In this document: positions 465 through 14,570 of the stretch, one piece after another
Layout of the letters: every line of letters starts with the position of its first letter
How positions within the stretch are numbered: the first letter of the stretch is position 1
NCBI GenBank assembly: GCA_015485695.1
Contig: WFTB01000027.1
Location: 20,183-84,182, forward strand
Direction: 5' to 3'
From: Patescibacteria group bacterium
GTDB taxonomy: Bacteria > Patescibacteriota > Patescibacteriia > WFTA01 > S139-112
DNA: 64,000 nucleotides
Made by a program: the position numbers and the translations under genes
Notes under the pieces: model-generated
Seen by the model: only the letters and a program-made list of their open reading frames with translations
What the model was told of the DNA's origin: nothing
Database searches by the model: none

Positions 465-527
465 AGAACAACTGTTAACTGTTTTTAAGATTCTTAACAC
501 GCGCTTGGGCTCTTAATATAAGCGTGT

Positions 528-558
528 CAATCTCTAATTCGCGCGAATAGGCGAATAG
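528..558. repeat. Conserved palindromic motif copy 1 (tcaatctctaattcgcgcgaataggcgaatag), 24 nt upstream of the ArsR-like gene
   Basis: Identical 31-mer to copy 2. Contains the 12-bp perfect palindrome ATTCGCGCGAAT. A TAATAT -10-like hexamer lies about 10 nt upstream. Confidence 0.8.
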
Positions 559-581
559 TATTATGCCTTATAAGGTTAAAT

Positions 582-860
582 ATGATCCCGTCTCATTGTG
601 AATCAATCTATAAAGCTCTAGCCAACAAGAGGCGCCTTTTTATTCTTATGTTCCTTTCGGATTCTGGTGTCGCCACCGTCCATGAAGTTGCCGACCGTAT
701 TGGGCTTTCTTTGAAGGTGACATCGAAGCATTTGCTTATATTAAAATCCAGAGGTATCGTAAGCAGTGTTCAGATTGGTCTTGAACAAAACTATTCTATC
801 AAGAGGCCGGTTCATAAAATCGTGAAACAGTTTTTATCAATCTCTAATTCGCGCGAATAG
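582..860 (+). CDS. ArsR/SmtB-family winged-HTH transcriptional regulator
   Basis: The segment KRRLFILMFLSDSGVATVHEVADRIGLSLKVTSKHLLILKSRGIV matches the ArsR HTH pattern. The gene is bracketed by motif copies 1 and 2. Confidence 0.6.
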   Translation: MIPSHCESIYKALANKRRLFILMFLSDSGVATVHEVADRIGLSLKVTSKHLLILKSRGIVSSVQIGLEQNYSIKRPVHKIVKQFLSISNSRE

Positions 861-868
861 GCGAATAG
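838..868. repeat. Conserved palindromic motif copy 2, overlapping the 3' end of the ArsR-like gene and about 20 nt upstream of the DUF4258-like gene
   Basis: Exact repeat of the copy-1 31-mer. Confidence 0.8.
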
Positions 869-886
869 TTGCGATTGCGTTTTTGT

Positions 887-1258
887 ATGCAGATTAGGAA
901 GCCGAAAAACAATGATAAGTATTGTTGGACAGAGCATGTATATGGTAAGATGATTCAATACGGAATATCAGAGCAGACGGTTAGGCGGATTGTACGAAAT
1001 CCTGAGCGAATCGAAGAGGGTATCGCGCCAAACACCATTGCGGTGATGCAAACACGTGGCAAAAAGCAAAAGTACGAGCTTTGGTGTATGTACCAGATTG
1101 TGCGGAAGACAAAAAAACATGAAAACACGGAAAACACGGGAAATAAATCAAATCAGATTAAAATAATAACCACCTGGCGGTATCCGGGAGTATCACCCAA
1201 GCGCGCGCACATTCCCATACCCGAAGAGATTGTTGAAGAGCTTGGTATTGTTTTATGA
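887..1258 (+). CDS. DUF4258-like protein (RelE/ParE-fold toxin-like), with a C-terminal extension
   Basis: The pattern WTEHVYGKMIQYGISEQTVRRIVRNPERIEEG...LWCMYQIV...IKIITTWRYPGV matches the DUF4258 consensus (WTEHA..R..RGIS..V..NPE.I...L.VV...I.VITVY). The ORF track start at 869 is TTG; the first ATG is at 887. Confidence 0.45.
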   Translation: MQIRKPKNNDKYCWTEHVYGKMIQYGISEQTVRRIVRNPERIEEGIAPNTIAVMQTRGKKQKYELWCMYQIVRKTKKHENTENTGNKSNQIKIITTWRYPGVSPKRAHIPIPEEIVEELGIVL

Positions 1259-1374
1259 ACAATATTTCAGAAAAAGTAATTAACGCTGAAAAAGAGTATT
1301 CAGATGGTAAGCAGATTGGTGGCGCTGATCTTAAAAATATTGAGGAAGAGGTCAAAAAGATAAAGCAACTGTAA
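1255..1374 (+). CDS. Small 39-aa ORF translationally coupled to the DUF4258-like gene (ATGA overlap)
   Basis: Translates as MNNISEKVINAEKEYSDGKQIGGADLKNIEEEVKKIKQL. Its start overlaps the upstream stop (ATGA at 1255-1258). It is below the ORF-track size cutoff. Confidence 0.25.
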   Translation: MNNISEKVINAEKEYSDGKQIGGADLKNIEEEVKKIKQL

Positions 1375-1492
1375 CCACTCAGATGGTCCGCAAAAGCGAA
1401 AATCTCAAGGCTCACGGTATGCGCCGTTCCCTTGGACGCCAGGTAACTGTTTCGTAAAATAACGATAAGGTCATGATAGTAATGGTGATTGT

Positions 1493-2521
1493 ATGGAAAC
1501 ACATCAAGATATGAACAACGACAAATCACCGATTCATGTTTGGGCAAAAGAAATCGCAACGCAACAAAATTTTTCTGACCCCAAATTAATCTATCAGGGA
1601 GGGCATTACGCAAAGGAAGACGTGCGTAATGTGATTTATGAGGGTCTGTATCAAGGCAAGTTAGCGGTACTTAAGGTGTACGATGATCCGCGCCCTTCCG
1701 ATGAGCCGATATCGCAGAAACGATACCTCGAAGACAACGCAAGCGTCATATTGACTGCGCCCGAAGTGTATGCGTATGAGATTGTTACGCCGAACAAAGG
1801 ATGGTTTATCATGGAAAAATTGCCCGAGAGCGGTTCGTTCTTTACGACGCCGTTGTCTGAAAACGACAGAAAAGAGTTCTTGAATATATTTGTCGAATAT
1901 CGTAAAAATTTCCCTCGAAAAGCCACTCGCGAAATATTGCTTGTTGAAAACTTGCCAGCTCATGAGTTTTGCGCGTTTCGCATCGGTCGTTGGTTGGAGT
2001 TTGTCACAAAGCAAGAATTGAAATCGATATTTAAGGACGAGCAACCCTTATTGGATAGAAACGTATTTATACCTCTCTACGCCAAGGCGATGGAAGTGTT
2101 GCGTTTGGAGTTTTCCAAACGTGAGATGATATGGTGTCACGGGCATTTTAAACCGCAAGAGATATATAAAGTTTCTGACGATAAATACTATGTCACCGAT
2201 TTTGCCCATACGAGATTGTATCCCGAAGGATATGAATTCGGATTCATTATTTGGGCGGATTATCTCATGTCGGCGGACTGGTCTGAGAGTTATGAATCGT
2301 GGAAACGAGGTGTACGAGTGTGGTTTGACGCGCTTCGTCCGGTGGCGGACGAACTTGGGATTGCGCGGTATGATGATTTGATTCGCGCTAGTATGATTGA
2401 GCGAGTTCTTGGTACTATTCTTGCGGATGTACACGCAAGTGATATACCGAATAAAAATAAAATTCACAGGATTGAATATTTACAAAAACTGCTAAGGGAA
2501 TTGATTAATCATGAGCAATAA
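1493..2521 (+). CDS. Protein kinase-like / aminoglycoside-phosphotransferase-fold protein
   Basis: An HGHFKPQE loop sits where APH/ChoK enzymes have HGDxxxxN, and a downstream VTDF (DFG-like) motif is present. The catalytic Asp appears to be replaced by His. Confidence 0.4.
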   Translation: METHQDMNNDKSPIHVWAKEIATQQNFSDPKLIYQGGHYAKEDVRNVIYEGLYQGKLAVLKVYDDPRPSDEPISQKRYLEDNASVILTAPEVYAYEIVTPNKGWFIMEKLPESGSFFTTPLSENDRKEFLNIFVEYRKNFPRKATREILLVENLPAHEFCAFRIGRWLEFVTKQELKSIFKDEQPLLDRNVFIPLYAKAMEVLRLEFSKREMIWCHGHFKPQEIYKVSDDKYYVTDFAHTRLYPEGYEFGFIIWADYLMSADWSESYESWKRGVRVWFDALRPVADELGIARYDDLIRASMIERVLGTILADVHASDIPNKNKIHRIEYLQKLLRELINHEQ

Positions 2522-3413
2522 ACCAAAACTATCTATCATCATAGTCTCTTGGAATGTGCGAGAACTTCTTGAGAAATGCCTTGTCTCTATTGAAAAATAT
2601 CGAAGGGGTTTGGATTTGGAAATTATTGTGATTGACAATAATTCTACAGACGGAAGTCAAGAGATGATTGCAAATTTCAAATCTCAGATTGCAAATTTAA
2701 AAACAATTTTTATAAATGAAAACTTGGGATTTGCGAAGGGAAATAACAAGGGATTGGAATGGGCGAAGGGGGAGTATGCGTTGTTTCTAAACCCAGATAC
2801 TGAAGTGGTGGGGGATGCGTTGGCGGAGATGGTGCGCTATATGGACACACGCCCGGAAGTTGGTGCGATTGGACCGAAACTTCTTAATTCGGACGAATCT
2901 TTGCAGCGTTCGGTACGTGCGTTTCCGACATTGGTTTCACAATTATTAATATTAACGAAGTTGCACAATTTTATTCCGCGAATAGCTCCGCTAAAAGTAT
3001 ATTTCCAACTTGACTTTGACTATGAGACAGAACGCGATGTGGACCAGGTGATGGGGGCGGCATTGCTTGTCCGCAAATCCATCCTCGACGAGGTGGGGAG
3101 CTTTGATGCGGGTTATAAGAGAATTTTTGAAGAGGTAGATTTATGTTTTAGGATAAAACATGCGGGACACACCATTCGCTATATTCCAATCGCGCGTATT
3201 ATTCACCATAAAGGCGCAAGCTTCACCCAGCAACGCATCTGCCAGAAACAGCTCGACTTCAACCAAGGCATGCTCCGCTTCTTCAAAAAACACAAATCCG
3301 TTTGGCAGTATGTCGTGCTCTATCTCTTCCAGCCGATAAGTTGGCTCGCGACGTTATTCGTCATGCTCGTCGGTATTCCATTTCGTAAGAAATTTAAAAA
3401 AACTGATTTGTGA
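2511..3413 (+). CDS. Glycosyltransferase family 2
   Basis: N-terminal LSIIIVSWNV....EIIVIDNNSTDGS and a DXD-region are typical of GT2 rhamnosyltransferase-like enzymes. Confidence 0.75.
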   Translation: MSNKPKLSIIIVSWNVRELLEKCLVSIEKYRRGLDLEIIVIDNNSTDGSQEMIANFKSQIANLKTIFINENLGFAKGNNKGLEWAKGEYALFLNPDTEVVGDALAEMVRYMDTRPEVGAIGPKLLNSDESLQRSVRAFPTLVSQLLILTKLHNFIPRIAPLKVYFQLDFDYETERDVDQVMGAALLVRKSILDEVGSFDAGYKRIFEEVDLCFRIKHAGHTIRYIPIARIIHHKGASFTQQRICQKQLDFNQGMLRFFKKHKSVWQYVVLYLFQPISWLATLFVMLVGIPFRKKFKKTDL

Positions 3414-3416
3414 AAT

Positions 3417-3927
3417 ATGATGTCTATAGAACAAAGTGAGACATTGCAAAGTGTTCCAAAAGATCAATTATGTCACTTACATCCCTGGGACCCCAACACA
3501 CACGTGGTTGCCAAAGAGATGCTCCAAAAAATTCGCCGGTTAGCCCCAAATTTGGATGTTACATTTACAGGCTCTGCCGCATTGAGGATTTTAGGAAAAA
3601 ACGATGTTGATTTGACTGCAACATGTAATACTTAAGACCTTAAAAAATTTAGACAAATGTTTCACAGGATATTTGAAAGTAGATATCATCTGGAAGATAT
3701 CATGTCAAAGTGACAAACGCACCATAGGGGCTTAAAAGTTGACCTCGTGATTCTCAACAAGGATAAATCAGAGATAGCTAATCAACCACTACAGATTTTC
3801 TTGACTTTAAAAAACAACCCTACTTTGCTAATGGAATATGAAAAAATGAAGGCTTCTTGTGAAGGTCGCCCATATGTTGAATTTTTAAGGAAAAAGATAG
3901 AATTTTATAATCGACACACGAAATAAT
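3417..3927 (+). pseudogene. GrpB-family (UPF0157) gene disrupted by a stop and at least one frameshift
   Basis: An N-terminal GrpB-like piece (VTFTGSAALRILGKNDVDL) ends at TAA 3633-3635. A C-terminal GrpB-like piece (HHRGLKVDLVIL...FLTLKNNPTLLMEYEKMKAS...YVEFLRKKIEFY) continues in another frame to TAA near 3925-3927. Confidence 0.5.
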
Positions 3928-4069
3928 CTCTATATATTTAAAATTTCTTGCATAAATTCATCCATTATGCTATAGTATTTGCGAATGAGCCGAGAGGCTT
4001 TTTAAATTTGATTTATTGGTTTTGCGGGACTTACAGCGATATGCTCCCTAAAAACTACTGTTAATAACT

Positions 4070-4249
4070 ATGGCTAGTCTTATACAATATATTAAAGACT
4101 CTCGAGCAGAGCTTAAAAAGGTCCAATGGCCGACGCGACAAGAAACAACGAGATACACAATACTTGTAATAGTTATTTCTATCGCGGTTGCGGCTTTTCT
4201 TGGGTTTTTTGATTATATCTTCAATCTTATCCTCGAATACCTGGTTTAA
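4070..4249 (+). CDS. secE: Preprotein translocase subunit SecE
   Basis: 59 aa: MASLIQYIKDSRAELKKVQWPTRQETTRYTILVIVISIAVAAFLGFFDYIFNLILEYLV. It has the conserved KKV.WP motif and one TM helix, and sits directly upstream of nusG. Not in the ORF track (<60 aa). A TTGCAT-17-TATAGT promoter-like site is at 3947-3975. Confidence 0.7.
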   Translation: MASLIQYIKDSRAELKKVQWPTRQETTRYTILVIVISIAVAAFLGFFDYIFNLILEYLV

Positions 4250-4300
4250 GTGTTTTAAGGATGCTTAATCCTTAACACCTAAAACCTAACCCTAACATTT

Positions 4301-4846
4301 ATGGCTCGACAGATACAACAACAAGGTAGGCGGTGGTACGCGATTCATACCTATTCCGGATATGAAGAAAACGTACAACGCAACCTAAAACAAAGAATAG
4401 AATCAATGGACATGCAAGACAGAATCTTCGATGTGCTTGTTCCGACTGAAACTCGTTTCAAAATCAAGGGCGGAAAACGCACCAAGGTTCGAGAGAAGAT
4501 TTTCCCCGGATATGTCCTTGTGGATATGATAGTGACGGATGAATCATGGTATGTGGTTCGCAACACTCCCAATGTAACCGGATTCATCGGTTCCGGCACC
4601 ACTCCGACCCCCCTGTCTGAAGAAGAAGTTTCGAATTTGCTTAAACGAATGGGAGTGGAAGAGCCAAAATACGTCATTGACGTTTCGATTGGAACGGCGG
4701 TCAGAATCACCGATGGGCCGTTCAAAGATCATGAGGGCAAGGTTTCGCAGATTGATGACGCGCGCGGTAAGGTAAAGGTTCTTGTATCGATGTTCGGACG
4801 CGAAACACCGGTCGAGCTCGACTTTTTGCAGATTAAGAAATTATAA
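4301..4846 (+). CDS. nusG: Transcription termination/antitermination factor NusG
   Basis: NGN domain plus a C-terminal KOW motif (GPFKDHEGKVSQID..KVKVLVSMFGRETPVEL). Canonical secE-nusG-rplK-rplA synteny. Confidence 0.9.
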   Translation: MARQIQQQGRRWYAIHTYSGYEENVQRNLKQRIESMDMQDRIFDVLVPTETRFKIKGGKRTKVREKIFPGYVLVDMIVTDESWYVVRNTPNVTGFIGSGTTPTPLSEEEVSNLLKRMGVEEPKYVIDVSIGTAVRITDGPFKDHEGKVSQIDDARGKVKVLVSMFGRETPVELDFLQIKKL

Positions 4847-4963
4847 TTATCAGACCAATCTTGGTCTCGAGTTCTCGGGACACGCTTCTCTGGATTGATA
4901 TAATGTTAGGGATCAGGTAATAGGTAATAGCACCTAATACTCTAAAACCTAAAACCTAGTAAT

Positions 4964-5386
4964 ATGGCAAAAGAAGTATTATCAAAAATCAAACTCCAAA
5001 TTCCGGGCGGAGCGGCGACTCCGGCTCCTCCTGTCGGTCCCGCCCTCGGTCAACATGGCGTGAATTCGCAAGAATTCATCACAAAGTTCAATGATGCGAC
5101 ACAGGACATGCGTGGCGATACGGTTCCGGTTGTTATTACCGTTTATGATGACCGTAGTTTTGATTTTATTATCAAAACTCCGCCGGCATCCGGTTTACTC
5201 ATGAAAGCCGCCGGAATCAAGAAAGGCTCCGGAAAGCCTCTGACCGAAAAGGTGGGCAAGGTAACCAAGGATCAAATTCGTGAGATAGCGGAACGCAAAC
5301 TTCCGGACCTTAATGCGCACGATATAGACGCGGCGATGAAAATCATCGAAGGAACAGCCCGTCAAATGGGCATAAAAGTTGAATAG
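4964..5386 (+). CDS. rplK: 50S ribosomal protein L11
   Basis: [30 protein letters not shown] is canonical L11. Confidence 0.95.
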
Positions 5387-6227: not shown

Positions 6228-6836
6228 ATGCCGGTGCCAAAAAAATTAATAAAATACCTGGACAGAGAAAAGGTTCCGTATGAAATTGTGGAGCACAAAA
6301 TCGCGCACACTTCATCGGATTTGGCTTTAACGTTGCGAATCAACCCTAAACAAGTCGTAAAAACCGTTGTGATCAAGATTAACGGCAAAGTTCCGATTTT
6401 GTCCCTGATTCCCGCGAATAAGCGCTTGAACGAGGATAAGCTTGGAAACGCGGTTTATAACGCGATACTGGATATGCGCGGAAAAATGGCGCGTTTGAAC
6501 AATGATCAACACGCGGTACCGACGGAGTGGAATTTCCCGATTCAAGATTTGAAAGGTAAGAAGTTCAGATCCGAGATTGCCGGAAAAAAATGGATAAATG
6601 AAAAGCTTTTGGGAAACCCCGGAGCCACGCCTCCTTTTGGTCGTCTGATGCGATTGCCCACATTTATGGACAAATCATTTTTTAAGGAAAATTTTTTAAT
6701 CTTGAATTCCGGTGACTATCGCGTATCGATAAAAATGAAAACCGAAGATTTCGTTAGGTTGGAGATGCCTTTGTCGGGGCGCATAAGTTCGATTGGGAAG
6801 ACGCAATTAAAACTCAATGAAACGGCTAAACGGTAA
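6228..6836 (+). CDS. YbaK/ProX-like aminoacyl-tRNA deacylase domain protein
   Basis: YEIVEH...TSSDLA...VVKTVVIKINGKVPILSLIPANKRL matches the YbaK/EbsC pattern. It has a C-terminal extension. Confidence 0.5.
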   Translation: MPVPKKLIKYLDREKVPYEIVEHKIAHTSSDLALTLRINPKQVVKTVVIKINGKVPILSLIPANKRLNEDKLGNAVYNAILDMRGKMARLNNDQHAVPTEWNFPIQDLKGKKFRSEIAGKKWINEKLLGNPGATPPFGRLMRLPTFMDKSFFKENFLILNSGDYRVSIKMKTEDFVRLEMPLSGRISSIGKTQLKLNETAKR

Positions 6837-12074: not shown

Positions 12075-12245
12075 CATTAAGCTACAAGAGCCTCTGCTAG
12101 CGGGCTCTTGCCTTGCTATTTGCGGGTATTTGTGTTACAGTTTCACGCGTGGTTCTTGGGCATTCTCGCGAATTTTGTTTTGGCTGTCATGGTTTATTCC
12201 GGTGTTGAGGTTTGATACAGAACCGGTACGCGCAATTTGCAATCG

Positions 12246-13109: not shown

Positions 13110-13370
13110 CTAAGGATTTTACCTTGTTGGGATTACGAGAAAGTTCGAACGCTGGCTAATTTCGGTGTTCGATTAAGTATATCTTGGTAAGTTGGAAAAT
13201 CTTCAAAGACAAGTCCGAATAGGGCTTGTTTTTGGTTGATATTTTCAGTATCTTCAATGATTTTAGCGGATGTGTTTTCTTTGCAAGATGTTTTTAGACG
13301 TTAAATTTAAAGCTCAACGCCAATCCATGCTCGCATTATGAGCAGTTAAAAATTTATGGTATAATTAGAA

Positions 13371-13397
13371 ATCTCCAATTCGCGCGAATAGGCGAAT
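13371..13397. repeat. Conserved palindromic motif copy 3 (atctccaattcgcgcgaataggcgaat), 16 nt upstream of the CYTH gene
   Basis: 26/27 identity to the copy-1/2 core. An extended -10 (TGgTATAAT, 13357-13365) lies immediately upstream. Confidence 0.8.
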
Positions 13398-13413
13398 TAT
13401 ACATCCATAACAT

Positions 13414-13983
13414 ATGGACGACGGTTATAAAGAAATTGAAACTCGGTTTTTAGATATTGACGTTGAAGACCTAGAAAGACGATTAGGTAAACTCGGTGCA
13501 ACTAACAAGGGTGAAGCTTTTTTGAAAGAGACGATATTTTTAGATCGTAATGGAAACTGGGAGAATGACTTTAAAGTAGTTAGGCTTCGTGTGTTTTCAG
13601 GTGGAAAAGTAAAACTTTCGTATAAACGTTTTGTGTCGCATGATATTGACGGTACTCGAGAGATAGAATTGAGTCTTGATGAGAATCCGAAAAAAATAAG
13701 CCAGTTTTTAGAAGCTATTGACTTAGTGGTCTATCGCTACCAAGAAAAGAAACGGCATACATATGAACTTGAAGGAGTCACTGTTGATATTGACACGTGG
13801 CCTTCCATCCCCACATACGTAGAACTGGAAGGCGAATCAGAAGAAGCTCTTAAGGGAGTTGCAGAAAAGCTTGGGCTTGATTGGTCAGAAGCAGTGTTCA
13901 AGGATGCGCAAGCAATCATTGAGATGTATATAAAAAAGTCTTTTAACGATATAAAATATTTCACATTTGACAGGATTGAATAG
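13414..13983 (+). CDS. CYTH-domain protein (triphosphate tunnel metalloenzyme / CyaB-like)
   Basis: N-terminal EIETRFL (ExExK signature), internal basic and acidic beta-strand residues, and a C-terminal VDIDTWPSIPTYVELEGES. Confidence 0.65.
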   Translation: MDDGYKEIETRFLDIDVEDLERRLGKLGATNKGEAFLKETIFLDRNGNWENDFKVVRLRVFSGGKVKLSYKRFVSHDIDGTREIELSLDENPKKISQFLEAIDLVVYRYQEKKRHTYELEGVTVDIDTWPSIPTYVELEGESEEALKGVAEKLGLDWSEAVFKDAQAIIEMYIKKSFNDIKYFTFDRIE

Positions 13984-13989
13984 TAACAA

Positions 13990-14016
13990 ATCTATAATTC
14001 GCGCGAATAGGCGAAT
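13990..14016. repeat. Conserved palindromic motif copy 4 (atctataattcgcgcgaataggcgaat), 11 nt upstream of the second CYTH gene
   Basis: 25/27 identity to the copy-1 core. Confidence 0.8.
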
Positions 14017-14027
14017 ACTAGAATCGT

Positions 14028-14570
14028 ATGAGAGAAATTGAAGTAAAGGCTAAGATATCTAATAAGGAGAAGGTTTATCAAAGTCTTCTTGCGCGTGGGT
14101 GAGAATTTGCTGATCCTGTTGAATAGAATGATATTATTTTCCTTCGAAAAGGTAAGAAACTTCTTGAAGTAGAGTCGGGTGATTCTGTGCTTCGTGTTCG
14201 CAAGGTGGGAGATACGGCTAAACTGACGTATAAAGAGTATGTTTCAAACCAACTTGACTGTATCGAAGAGGGGCTTGCCATCGCTGATGCGGACACTATG
14301 CGACGTATCATCGAGCGTCTTGGATTTATCGAAGTAATCCAGGTGCACAAGAAACGTATTACCATCAAATACAAGGATTATGAGATTTGCTTCGATATTG
14401 TCGATGACCTTGGTGCTTTTATAGAGGTGGAGAAAATAGTACCAGATGATGAGGGTGATGGGGTGCAAGACGAGCTGTACGAATTTCTTTCCGAACTTGG
14501 GTTTACCAAGGAAGATAGGGTGACAATCGGGTATGACGTGCTCATGTTTATATTGAAACATCAAAGTTAA
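14028..14570 (+). pseudogene. CYTH-domain paralog interrupted by two in-frame stop codons
   Basis: A single reading frame spells MREIEVKAKISNKEKVYQSLLARG-TGA(14100)-EFADPVE-TAG(14124)-NDIIFLRKG...VRKVGDTAKLTYKEY..., which aligns with CYTH/CyaB proteins across both stops. The ORF track only calls 14187..14570. Confidence 0.55.

Follow-up and report, generated by a model that had tools for sequence, protein, structure and literature searches.

Why a small regulatory gene should stand between two identical copies of a palindromic repeat, and what that repeat does, is the question raised by a stretch of contig WFTB01000027.1 from a Patescibacteria group bacterium (assembly GCA_015485695.1, positions 20,183 to 84,182 of the forward strand). 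The whole stretch of 64,000 nucleotides was analysed and is called the window below, with coordinates counted from its first letter. Patescibacteria (the candidate phyla radiation, CPR) have tiny genomes in which few regulators are encoded, and to our knowledge almost nothing is known about their gene control. It was concluded from comparison with related loci that the repeat is probably the operator of the ArsR-type regulator whose gene the two copies flank.

An exact 33-nt direct repeat was located on the plus strand at 527-559 and 837-869. An earlier, sequence-only reading of the window had reported this repeat as an identical 31-mer at 528-558 and 838-868. The exact duplication was borne out, whereas its length and start were not: the quoted string is 32 nt long, lies at 527-558 and 837-868 and was thus placed one base late, and the identity extends over 33 nt. 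The 32-nt string had two exact matches in the window and none in 100 shuffles. Both the 12-bp palindrome ATTCGCGCGAAT and the half-site repeat GCGAATAG GCGAATAG were present as described in that reading; the setting, which it had called AT-rich, is moderately so only, the window having about 42% GC. Two further copies, overlooked at that time, were found some 13 kb away, and the sites and the regulator gene are as follows.

527..559, plus strand: putative operator copy 1, TCAATCTCTAATTCGCGCGAATAGGCGAATAGT; exact repeat with a four-box match, placed as in about 87% of the relatives selected by their protein
582..860, plus strand: arsR-like gene for a minimal ArsR/SmtB-family winged-helix regulator of 92 amino acids (aa), assigned by Pfam HTH_5, NCBIfam, AlphaFold2, Foldseek and alignments
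837..869, plus strand: putative operator copy 2, identical to copy 1; includes the TAG stop codon (858-860) of the arsR-like open reading frame (ORF)
13370..13399, plus strand: putative operator copy 3, AATCTCCAATTCGCGCGAATAGGCGAATTA; 14 nt upstream of a CYTH gene
13989..14018, plus strand: putative operator copy 4, AATCTATAATTCGCGCGAATAGGCGAATAC; a second CYTH reading frame has its ATG 9 nt downstream

The four-box body of copy 1, AATC-tcta-ATTC-gcgc-GAAT-aggc-GAAT, occupies 529-556, and the copy ends 23 nt before the ATG of the arsR-like gene (582). Copy 2 ends 18 nt before the ATG (887) of a DUF4258-like gene. Copies 3 and 4 have 28-nt bodies (13370-13397; 13989-14016) that depart from the four-box pattern by 1 mismatch. 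All four copies in the 64-kb window share the strand of the genes and are separated from a start codon by 9-23 nt, and no further, weaker site was found in the window beyond these four with a 28-mer allowing up to 9 mismatches, with the four-box pattern or with a relaxed core. Matches at 6402, within an ORF, and at 12162, between tRNA genes and with flanks that do not match, were chance-like and were rejected as sites.

The constraint on the site, as read from the variants found in relatives, consists of four 4-bp boxes with an 8-bp period, ATTC-N4-ATTC-N4-GAAT-N4-GAAT, of which the inner pair, ATTCG-NN-CGAAT, is the best-conserved part. The searches described below used the 20-mer core ATTCGCGCGAATAGGCGAAT, and bases beyond it are also conserved, with TCTCTA to its left and AG(T) to its right. 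Some sites are perfect palindromes of 28-30 bp, for example TATTCGCCTATTCGCGCGAATAGGCGAATA or TATTCTCTAATTCGCGCGAATTAGAGAATA, and the commonest form of the site is a hybrid of these two arms. Perfect pairing at the nine flanking positions was seen in 12% of sites, compared with 1.3% in a mix-and-match control, and the mean pairing of the outer arms was 5.35 of 9 positions compared with 4.70 in the control.

The gene between copies 1 and 2 had been taken for an ArsR-family winged helix-turn-helix regulator on sight, and profile searches upheld this: the 92-aa protein scored 30.7 bits against Pfam HTH_5/ArsR (PF01022), above the cutoff of 22, and 51.6 bits against NCBIfam HTH_metalloreg (NF033788), just below the cutoff of 55. 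In the AlphaFold2 monomer model (pLDDT 91.1), helices at residues 4-13, 16-28, 33-40, 44-56 and 79-90 and strands at 30-32, 60-65 and 68-73 were arranged in the order helix, helix, short strand, helix, recognition helix, beta-hairpin wing and C-terminal helix, which is the ArsR/SmtB fold. The best Foldseek matches were HlyU, YgaV, NolR (including a DNA complex), SqrR and CzrA, with TM scores of about 0.8 and rmsd values of 1.7-2.0 Å to 4k2e, 3cuo, 4omy and 6o8k, and the top 40 or more matches were all ArsR/SmtB proteins; by sequence, YgaV and HlyU were the closest among solved structures. A profile search (E<=1e-10) gave a family of at least 4,106 sequence clusters, all of 83-104 aa; among the clusters listed, all source names were Patescibacteria lineages, and relatives were annotated as ArsR family by their sources.

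Invariant columns of the family alignment were E7, K11, A12, A14, N15, R17, R18, I21, V33, I40, L42, S43, T47, S48, K49, H50, L54, Q64 and Y71, with LKVTSKHL as the recognition helix of the window protein. The metal- and thiol-sensing residues of the ArsR/SmtB family (the alpha3N Cys motif, the alpha5 Asp/His/Glu site and the reactive Cys pair) were looked for in the alignments and were absent. Cysteine is not conserved anywhere in the family alignment and the sole conserved histidine sits in the recognition helix, and there is therefore no known metal or thiol sensor site. As far as the alignments can tell, this excludes the sensor subgroups and leaves membership of the ArsR/SmtB family itself untouched.

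The tie between the motif and this protein was approached from the protein side. Sixteen ArsR-like proteins were aligned, and 80 metagenome loci were then taken, from 528 confirmed candidates, solely for encoding a relative. The 20-mer, with up to 5 mismatches, was present within 170 nt upstream of the regulator gene in 69 of the 79 loci with enough upstream sequence (about 87%), and at or just past the end of the gene in 69 of all 80 (about 86%); our own estimate of the chance rate for such a linkage is about 0.1 locus. With the site on both sides in about 86-87% of loci selected for the protein, motif, regulator gene and motif therefore constitute a conserved unit, and it is in the window that the unit appears in its purest form. 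The last residues of the window protein, SISNSRE before the stop, are encoded by copy 2. Throughout a subfamily (window 837-860; L119, L122 and L139) the left arm and core of the downstream copy encode the terminus SNSRE, and in other relatives, such as L181, L187, L188 and L196, the terminus reads SNSLE with an identical overlapping offset. In these loci, therefore, the coding end and the site are fused.

Further support for recognition of the site by the protein was seen in their covariation. The recognition helix, K-x-TSKH, is nearly invariant, and the two central bases of the site change with its variable residue, which is V in the window protein and A or S in relatives. Loci whose helix reads K-A-T carried a GCGC-type centre in 49 of 51 cases and a GTAC/GCAC-type centre in 2 of 51, whereas a GTAC/GCAC-type centre was found in 17 of the 21 loci whose helix reads K-S-T (Fisher p=6.5e-11, a value that takes loci as independent and carries no formal correction for phylogeny). 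When proteins were clustered with the helix columns masked, the switch between A and S, together with the matching change of site, recurred inside at least five separate protein clusters. Three loci with N in place of K in the helix had their core boxes altered to CAAT/ATTG. Judged from these sequences, the covariation of helix and centre matches the prediction for direct readout, and it would be hard to explain if the gene were merely a neighbour of the motif.

The 20-mer core was also scanned across one genome per species. Exact matches were found in at least 116 genome stretches, nearly all of them Patescibacteria by record title, and the lineages carrying it include Saccharibacteria, Paceibacterota and Nomura-, Uhr-, Doudna-, Kaiser-, Berkel-, Kerfeld- and Yanofskybacteria, among others. 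The sequence-only reading had treated the motif as specific to its locus and had named dispersal unrelated to gene starts as the outcome that would speak against its proposal. Locus specificity was not sustained, given the two extra copies before CYTH frames in the window and the spread of the motif before diverse genes across Patescibacteria; the motif is nevertheless placed preferentially at gene starts. A same-strand ORF begins within 150 nt downstream of 77 of 136 copies, often at 5-35 nt, and 27 of these 77 copies also lie near a divergent gene. Among one-sided sites, 50 have a same-strand gene downstream and 15 have a divergent upstream gene only. The start codon is no more than 12 nt away in 16 of the 77 sites having a downstream same-strand gene. 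Outside the arsR flanks, the core ATTCG-NN-CGAAT occurred 26 times in 264 kb (about 1 per 10 kb), where about 0.25 would be expected by our own chance estimate, and most of these copies were 33-100 nt upstream of a same-strand gene. No match to the 20-mer was found among 2.9 million viral contigs.

The genes downstream of the sites belong to many Pfam families. ArsR-type proteins (15 of 75, E<=1e-5), NUDIX, Ham1, SpoU methylases, TspO and Fpg were found, as were APH-like kinases, PD-(D/E)XK nucleases, MPG, MsrA and topoisomerase I. The genes that follow the downstream copy of the regulator itself vary from locus to locus and include those for Sua5, LysE, TspO, MsrB, an aldolase, AdoHcy hydrolase and aminoacyl-tRNA synthetases. 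A separate arrangement was observed in L140, a metagenome contig of 102 kb, where at least 10 motif copies lie within 6 kb (1246-5090). Three of them stand in tandem about 75 nt apart (1246, 1317 and 1397), with TTGCTA-16-TATAAT and a SAM-I riboswitch (1466-1587; 48.4 bits in Rfam, where the gathering score is 44.4) immediately after them.

In the window, inspection by eye showed TATTAT directly after copy 1 and TATAAG ending 7 nt before the arsR-like ATG. A clear -10 pattern emerged solely when the analysis was restricted to sites upstream of arsR genes. In the protein-selected loci (L118-L196), the best -10 between site and ATG, often an extended TGnTAtAAT, had its end at precisely 6 nt from the ATG in about 29 of the 64 loci, which is the geometry of a leaderless mRNA. 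This -10 began 13, 22 or 30 nt past the motif core, offsets that step by about one box period, and by this position the site therefore spans the -35 region and lies outside the leaderless transcript. The promoter positions inferred for relatives indicate that the motif would act at the DNA rather than the RNA level.

Taken together, the comparisons showed the repeat and its distribution, the linkage of site and gene and the covariation of protein and site. On this basis, the repeat would represent two copies of a quasi-palindromic DNA operator of about 30 bp, recognised by the small ArsR/SmtB protein encoded between them, which would most likely bind as a dimer or as a pair of dimers; binding and stoichiometry are what we infer. 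Copy 1, over or next to the promoter of the regulator gene, would provide self-control, copy 2 would bring the DUF4258-like gene under control of the same regulator, and copies 3 and 4 would do likewise for the two CYTH genes 13 kb away. Across the Patescibacteria, where regulator and site are both conserved, the site precedes a wide range of genes that differs between lineages and covers the repair of DNA and of proteins, nucleotide sanitation, tRNA and rRNA modification and translation. Overlap with the -35 region and the precedent of the family lead us to infer repression, with activation as the alternative. The autoregulatory operator had already been suggested by the sequence-only reading; the placement of the motif on both sides of the gene and the covariation with the helix now speak for it, while the repression part of that suggestion remains a matter of family precedent only.

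Copies of the motif were also found inside genes. The exact 20-mer occurs antisense within miaA (Pfam IPPT) at a constant position of the protein, where it encodes IRLFARI, in at least 10 loci of different CPR lineages (L007, L020, L021, L024, L037, L038, L073, L074, L088 and L098). The recurrence of this copy suggests that selection has acted on the DNA itself within a tRNA-modification gene, as far as the sequences allow. In-frame copies on the sense strand encode IRANRRI (L115:473, L071:2668-2695, L066:5842 and L040:4852) and lie in MiaA, MnmA, TruB and a MurD-like ligase, three of these four hosts being tRNA-modification enzymes. The copy in MnmA is a full 28-nt palindrome, and the PRC-barrel domain of that protein is about 16 residues longer than the Pfam model.

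The remaining genes associated with the four sites in the window are as follows.

887..1258, plus strand: DUF4258-like gene, 123 aa; presumed local target of copy 2, with a weak Pfam DUF4258 match
1255..1374, plus strand: 39-aa ORF, a doubtful gene; overlaps the stop of the DUF4258-like gene by ATGA and is also predicted by gene callers
13414..13983, plus strand: CYTH-domain gene, 189 aa (Pfam CYTH E=1.4e-10; NCBIfam cyaB below cutoff); presumed target of copy 3
14028..14570, plus strand: second CYTH/CyaB-like reading frame (beyond its stops, Pfam CYTH E=1.3e-15)

The second CYTH frame has an in-frame TGA at codon 25 and a TAG at codon 33, both before the CYTH-matching part, and is a probable pseudogene or assembly error. 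Around copies 1 and 2, two family-2 glycosyltransferase (GT2) genes enclose the arsR-like and DUF4258-like genes together with the 39-aa ORF and a 342-aa ORF. The closest non-identical relative of the DUF4258-like protein with a fetched locus (L200, 65% identity) has the order GT2, DUF4258-like gene, GT2, without arsR, motif or 39-aa ORF. Comparison of 1340-1580 of that locus with 380-960 of the window revealed the motif-arsR-motif unit, of about 340 nt, as a presence/absence difference between relatives. The 342-aa ORF (1493-2521), downstream of the DUF4258-like gene, had no Pfam or NCBIfam match; by eye, its HGHFKPQEIY stretch looks kinase-like. In L035 and L061, an APH-type phosphotransferase gene follows the downstream copy of the regulator. 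Across the window (1-64000), GC skew was positive in every 2-kb bin and nearly all long ORFs inspected were on the plus strand, which suggests a single replication arm whose genes are strongly co-oriented.

The sequence-only reading had proposed a narrower role, in which the motif would be an operator confined to this locus and would place a DUF4258 toxin-antitoxin pair under the control of the ArsR-like protein. Copy 2, as already noted, lies 18 nt upstream of the DUF4258-like gene, and the described ATGA overlap between that gene and the 39-aa ORF is indeed present. However, the match of the 123-aa protein to DUF4258, which a profile search did return, fell under the cutoff (21.4 bits against 25, E=3e-4), and no NCBIfam match was found. 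Its 281 relatives, all Patescibacteria among the names listed, are called 'hypothetical' or 'DUF4258 domain-containing'. The five of them that were examined, on long contigs, were solitary, with varied neighbours (an M48 peptidase, a MamF_MmsF-family protein, MPG and a PD-(D/E)XK nuclease) and with neither a common small partner ORF nor the motif upstream. The 39-aa ORF had no Pfam or NCBIfam match and returned identical copies only in tblastn. Together with the dispersal of the motif in the window and across the superphylum, these results make a dedicated toxin-antitoxin operator highly improbable, and the module itself lacks support. The DUF4258-like gene is instead presumed, from its surroundings here and in relatives, to be a local target and not a conserved member of the motif-controlled set.

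Several observations weigh against the operator reading. All support for it is comparative, and the covariation statistic assumes independence of loci, as stated above. A simple scan for sigma-70 promoters and terminators around the window sites gave no canonical promoter and no terminator at the motif, and -10-like hexamers, profiled across the full set of 343 sites, did not fall at any one distance. The common form of the site is asymmetric and has an orientation preference, neither of which would be needed by a purely symmetric operator, and the perfect palindromes whose arms differ between sites could point to a hairpin or to an origin from terminal inverted repeats. The arsR-like gene and its two copies also look like an insert relative to the L200 genome, as this sequence comparison suggests, and together with the intragenic copies this presence/absence difference suggests gain through recombination or insertion, a minority view that also fits an operator.

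Some of these observations would be expected if the motif were a small dispersed palindromic repeat and the motif-arsR-motif unit a movable cassette, with the direct repeats acting as recombination boundaries rather than, or besides, regulatory sites. Direct repeats bracket the gene in about 86-87% of loci while the neighbours vary, the L200 genome shares the glycosyltransferase context and the DUF4258-like gene without the unit, and the in-frame copies in MiaA, MnmA, TruB and the MurD-like ligase, the array in L140 and the over-represented perfect palindromes with differing arms agree with such an origin. Nevertheless, no recombinase or transposase was seen beside the copies inspected, the density is low (about 1 per 10-16 kb), the position and orientation preference for gene starts is strong, and the 20-mer is missing from viral contigs. 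Moreover, the covariation with the helix requires recognition by a protein whatever the mode of spread, so that a cassette would be compatible with an operator and no replacement for it; as an explanation it was considered unlikely. Dispersal and control can also be joined, and a small chance is allowed that the element serves a global regulator of the whole superphylum as its operator and at the same time spreads by itself. Its copies would then recombine, moving the motif-arsR-motif module and dropping single copies before genes or in frame inside them, notably in miaA, mnmA and truB, and genes of the reduced CPR genomes would in this way be connected to, or cut off from, one common control circuit.

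Two other explanations were considered. The motif might be a nucleic-acid hairpin, whether a structured RNA leader, a processing or stability element or a DNA cruciform, with the ArsR-like gene as just a frequent neighbour, and the perfectly palindromic core, the 28-30-nt perfect palindromes with arms differing between sites and the apparently compensatory differences between the two copies in L127 and L147 are in keeping with this. Nonetheless, the RNA folds of 527-559 and 837-869 were no better than those of shuffles (z -0.15 and -0.70), Rfam gave nothing at gathering score in the window and nothing even at E<=1 in 450-950, and no U-tract follows the motif, which is therefore not a terminator. 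The commonest form has mismatched outer arms (the 5.35 of 9 given above), the site in relatives lies upstream of the inferred leaderless transcription start, and the covariation with a protein residue would be left unexplained. We therefore give the hairpin very little credence. The same holds for a promoter element read by RNA polymerase or an alternative sigma factor, which appears scarcely probable even though the motif is preferentially oriented toward the downstream gene, promoter elements must overlap it at the 16 of 77 sites within 12 nt of a start codon, and its right arm ends, by eye, in a weak -10-like AATAGT. No fixed -10 or -35 relation holds across sites, the good promoters that are visible consist of a separate extended -10 downstream of the motif, the motif flanks the regulator gene and co-varies with it, and palindromic symmetry is not a property of promoters. 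Readings as a CRISPR repeat, as a dif/Xer or integron attC site, as a DNA uptake sequence or as a site of Z-DNA binding were rejected by our own reasoning: spacing, copy number and the bias to gene starts do not fit them, no integrase lies alongside, and purines and pyrimidines do not alternate consistently in the centres.

An operator of the ArsR-like protein thus being preferred, it can be compared with known systems. Members of the ArsR/SmtB family bind as dimers to inverted repeats at their own promoters, and an operator logic of this kind is ordinary for the family. The window protein shares its fold, size class and winged helix-turn-helix with NolR (Sinorhizobium), HlyU (Vibrio), YgaV (E. 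coli) and SqrR/BigR, and by its modelled fold and its profile matches it is placed in a branch of ArsR/SmtB without a recognisable sensor site, nearest in shape to NolR, HlyU and YgaV. Its family, however, is shorter (86-92 aa) and lacks the conserved Cys pair of SqrR, BigR and HlyU and the alpha3N/alpha5 metal sites; its operator, unlike those of NolR, HlyU, YgaV and SqrR, is a four-box site of 30 bp that stands on both sides of the gene and before many other genes. The 12-2-12 operators of SmtB and CzrA are imperfect inverted repeats of about 26-30 bp that overlap the promoter of their own operon and leave room for two dimers. As far as family knowledge goes, the window site is similar in size, promoter overlap and room for two dimers. 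In contrast, its boxes are ATTC/GAAT at an 8-bp period where those of SmtB/CzrA are of the TGAA...TTCA type, its usual form is asymmetric, and tens of sites per genome are found where SmtB/CzrA have one or two operons, with no metal-resistance genes among the targets.

By general knowledge, HrcA-CIRCE, LexA and the NrdR boxes offer a further parallel, with a long, near-invariant palindrome, a dedicated regulator, deep conservation and a site at the regulator gene; here, however, the protein family is another one, the targets are broad and lineage-variable instead of a fixed chaperone or repair set, and intragenic copies occur. A LexA regulon of Patescibacteria has reportedly been described, with a different site. 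Rickettsia palindromic elements, REP sequences and MITE-like elements resemble the motif as short palindromic units that occupy many intergenic places and occasionally lie in frame, as seen here in MiaA, MnmA, TruB and the MurD-like ligase. The present unit is far shorter (about 30 bp) and far less dense, is tied to gene starts, extends over a superphylum instead of one genus, and has a linked DNA-binding protein with a co-varying helix. The open literature was searched for the sequence and for a regulon of this kind in Patescibacteria, Saccharibacteria or the CPR, and no description was found. What is new is the four-box site, its placement on both sides of the gene, its near-invariance across the superphylum, the breadth of its predicted targets and the intragenic copies.

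For the window, the consequence would be that four intergenic sites are relabelled and that genes 13 kb apart are joined in one predicted control set. The pairing of A or S in the helix with GCGC or GTAC in the site provides a ready specificity experiment, and the prediction could be tested in the few cultivable members of the group. The functions preceded by the site comprise DNA repair (Fpg, MPG), nucleotide sanitation (NUDIX, Ham1), protein repair (MsrA, MsrB), translation and the modification of tRNA and rRNA. If the operator reading is true, this family of 86-92-aa regulators would be a candidate global regulator of the whole CPR, and the first one that can be tested.

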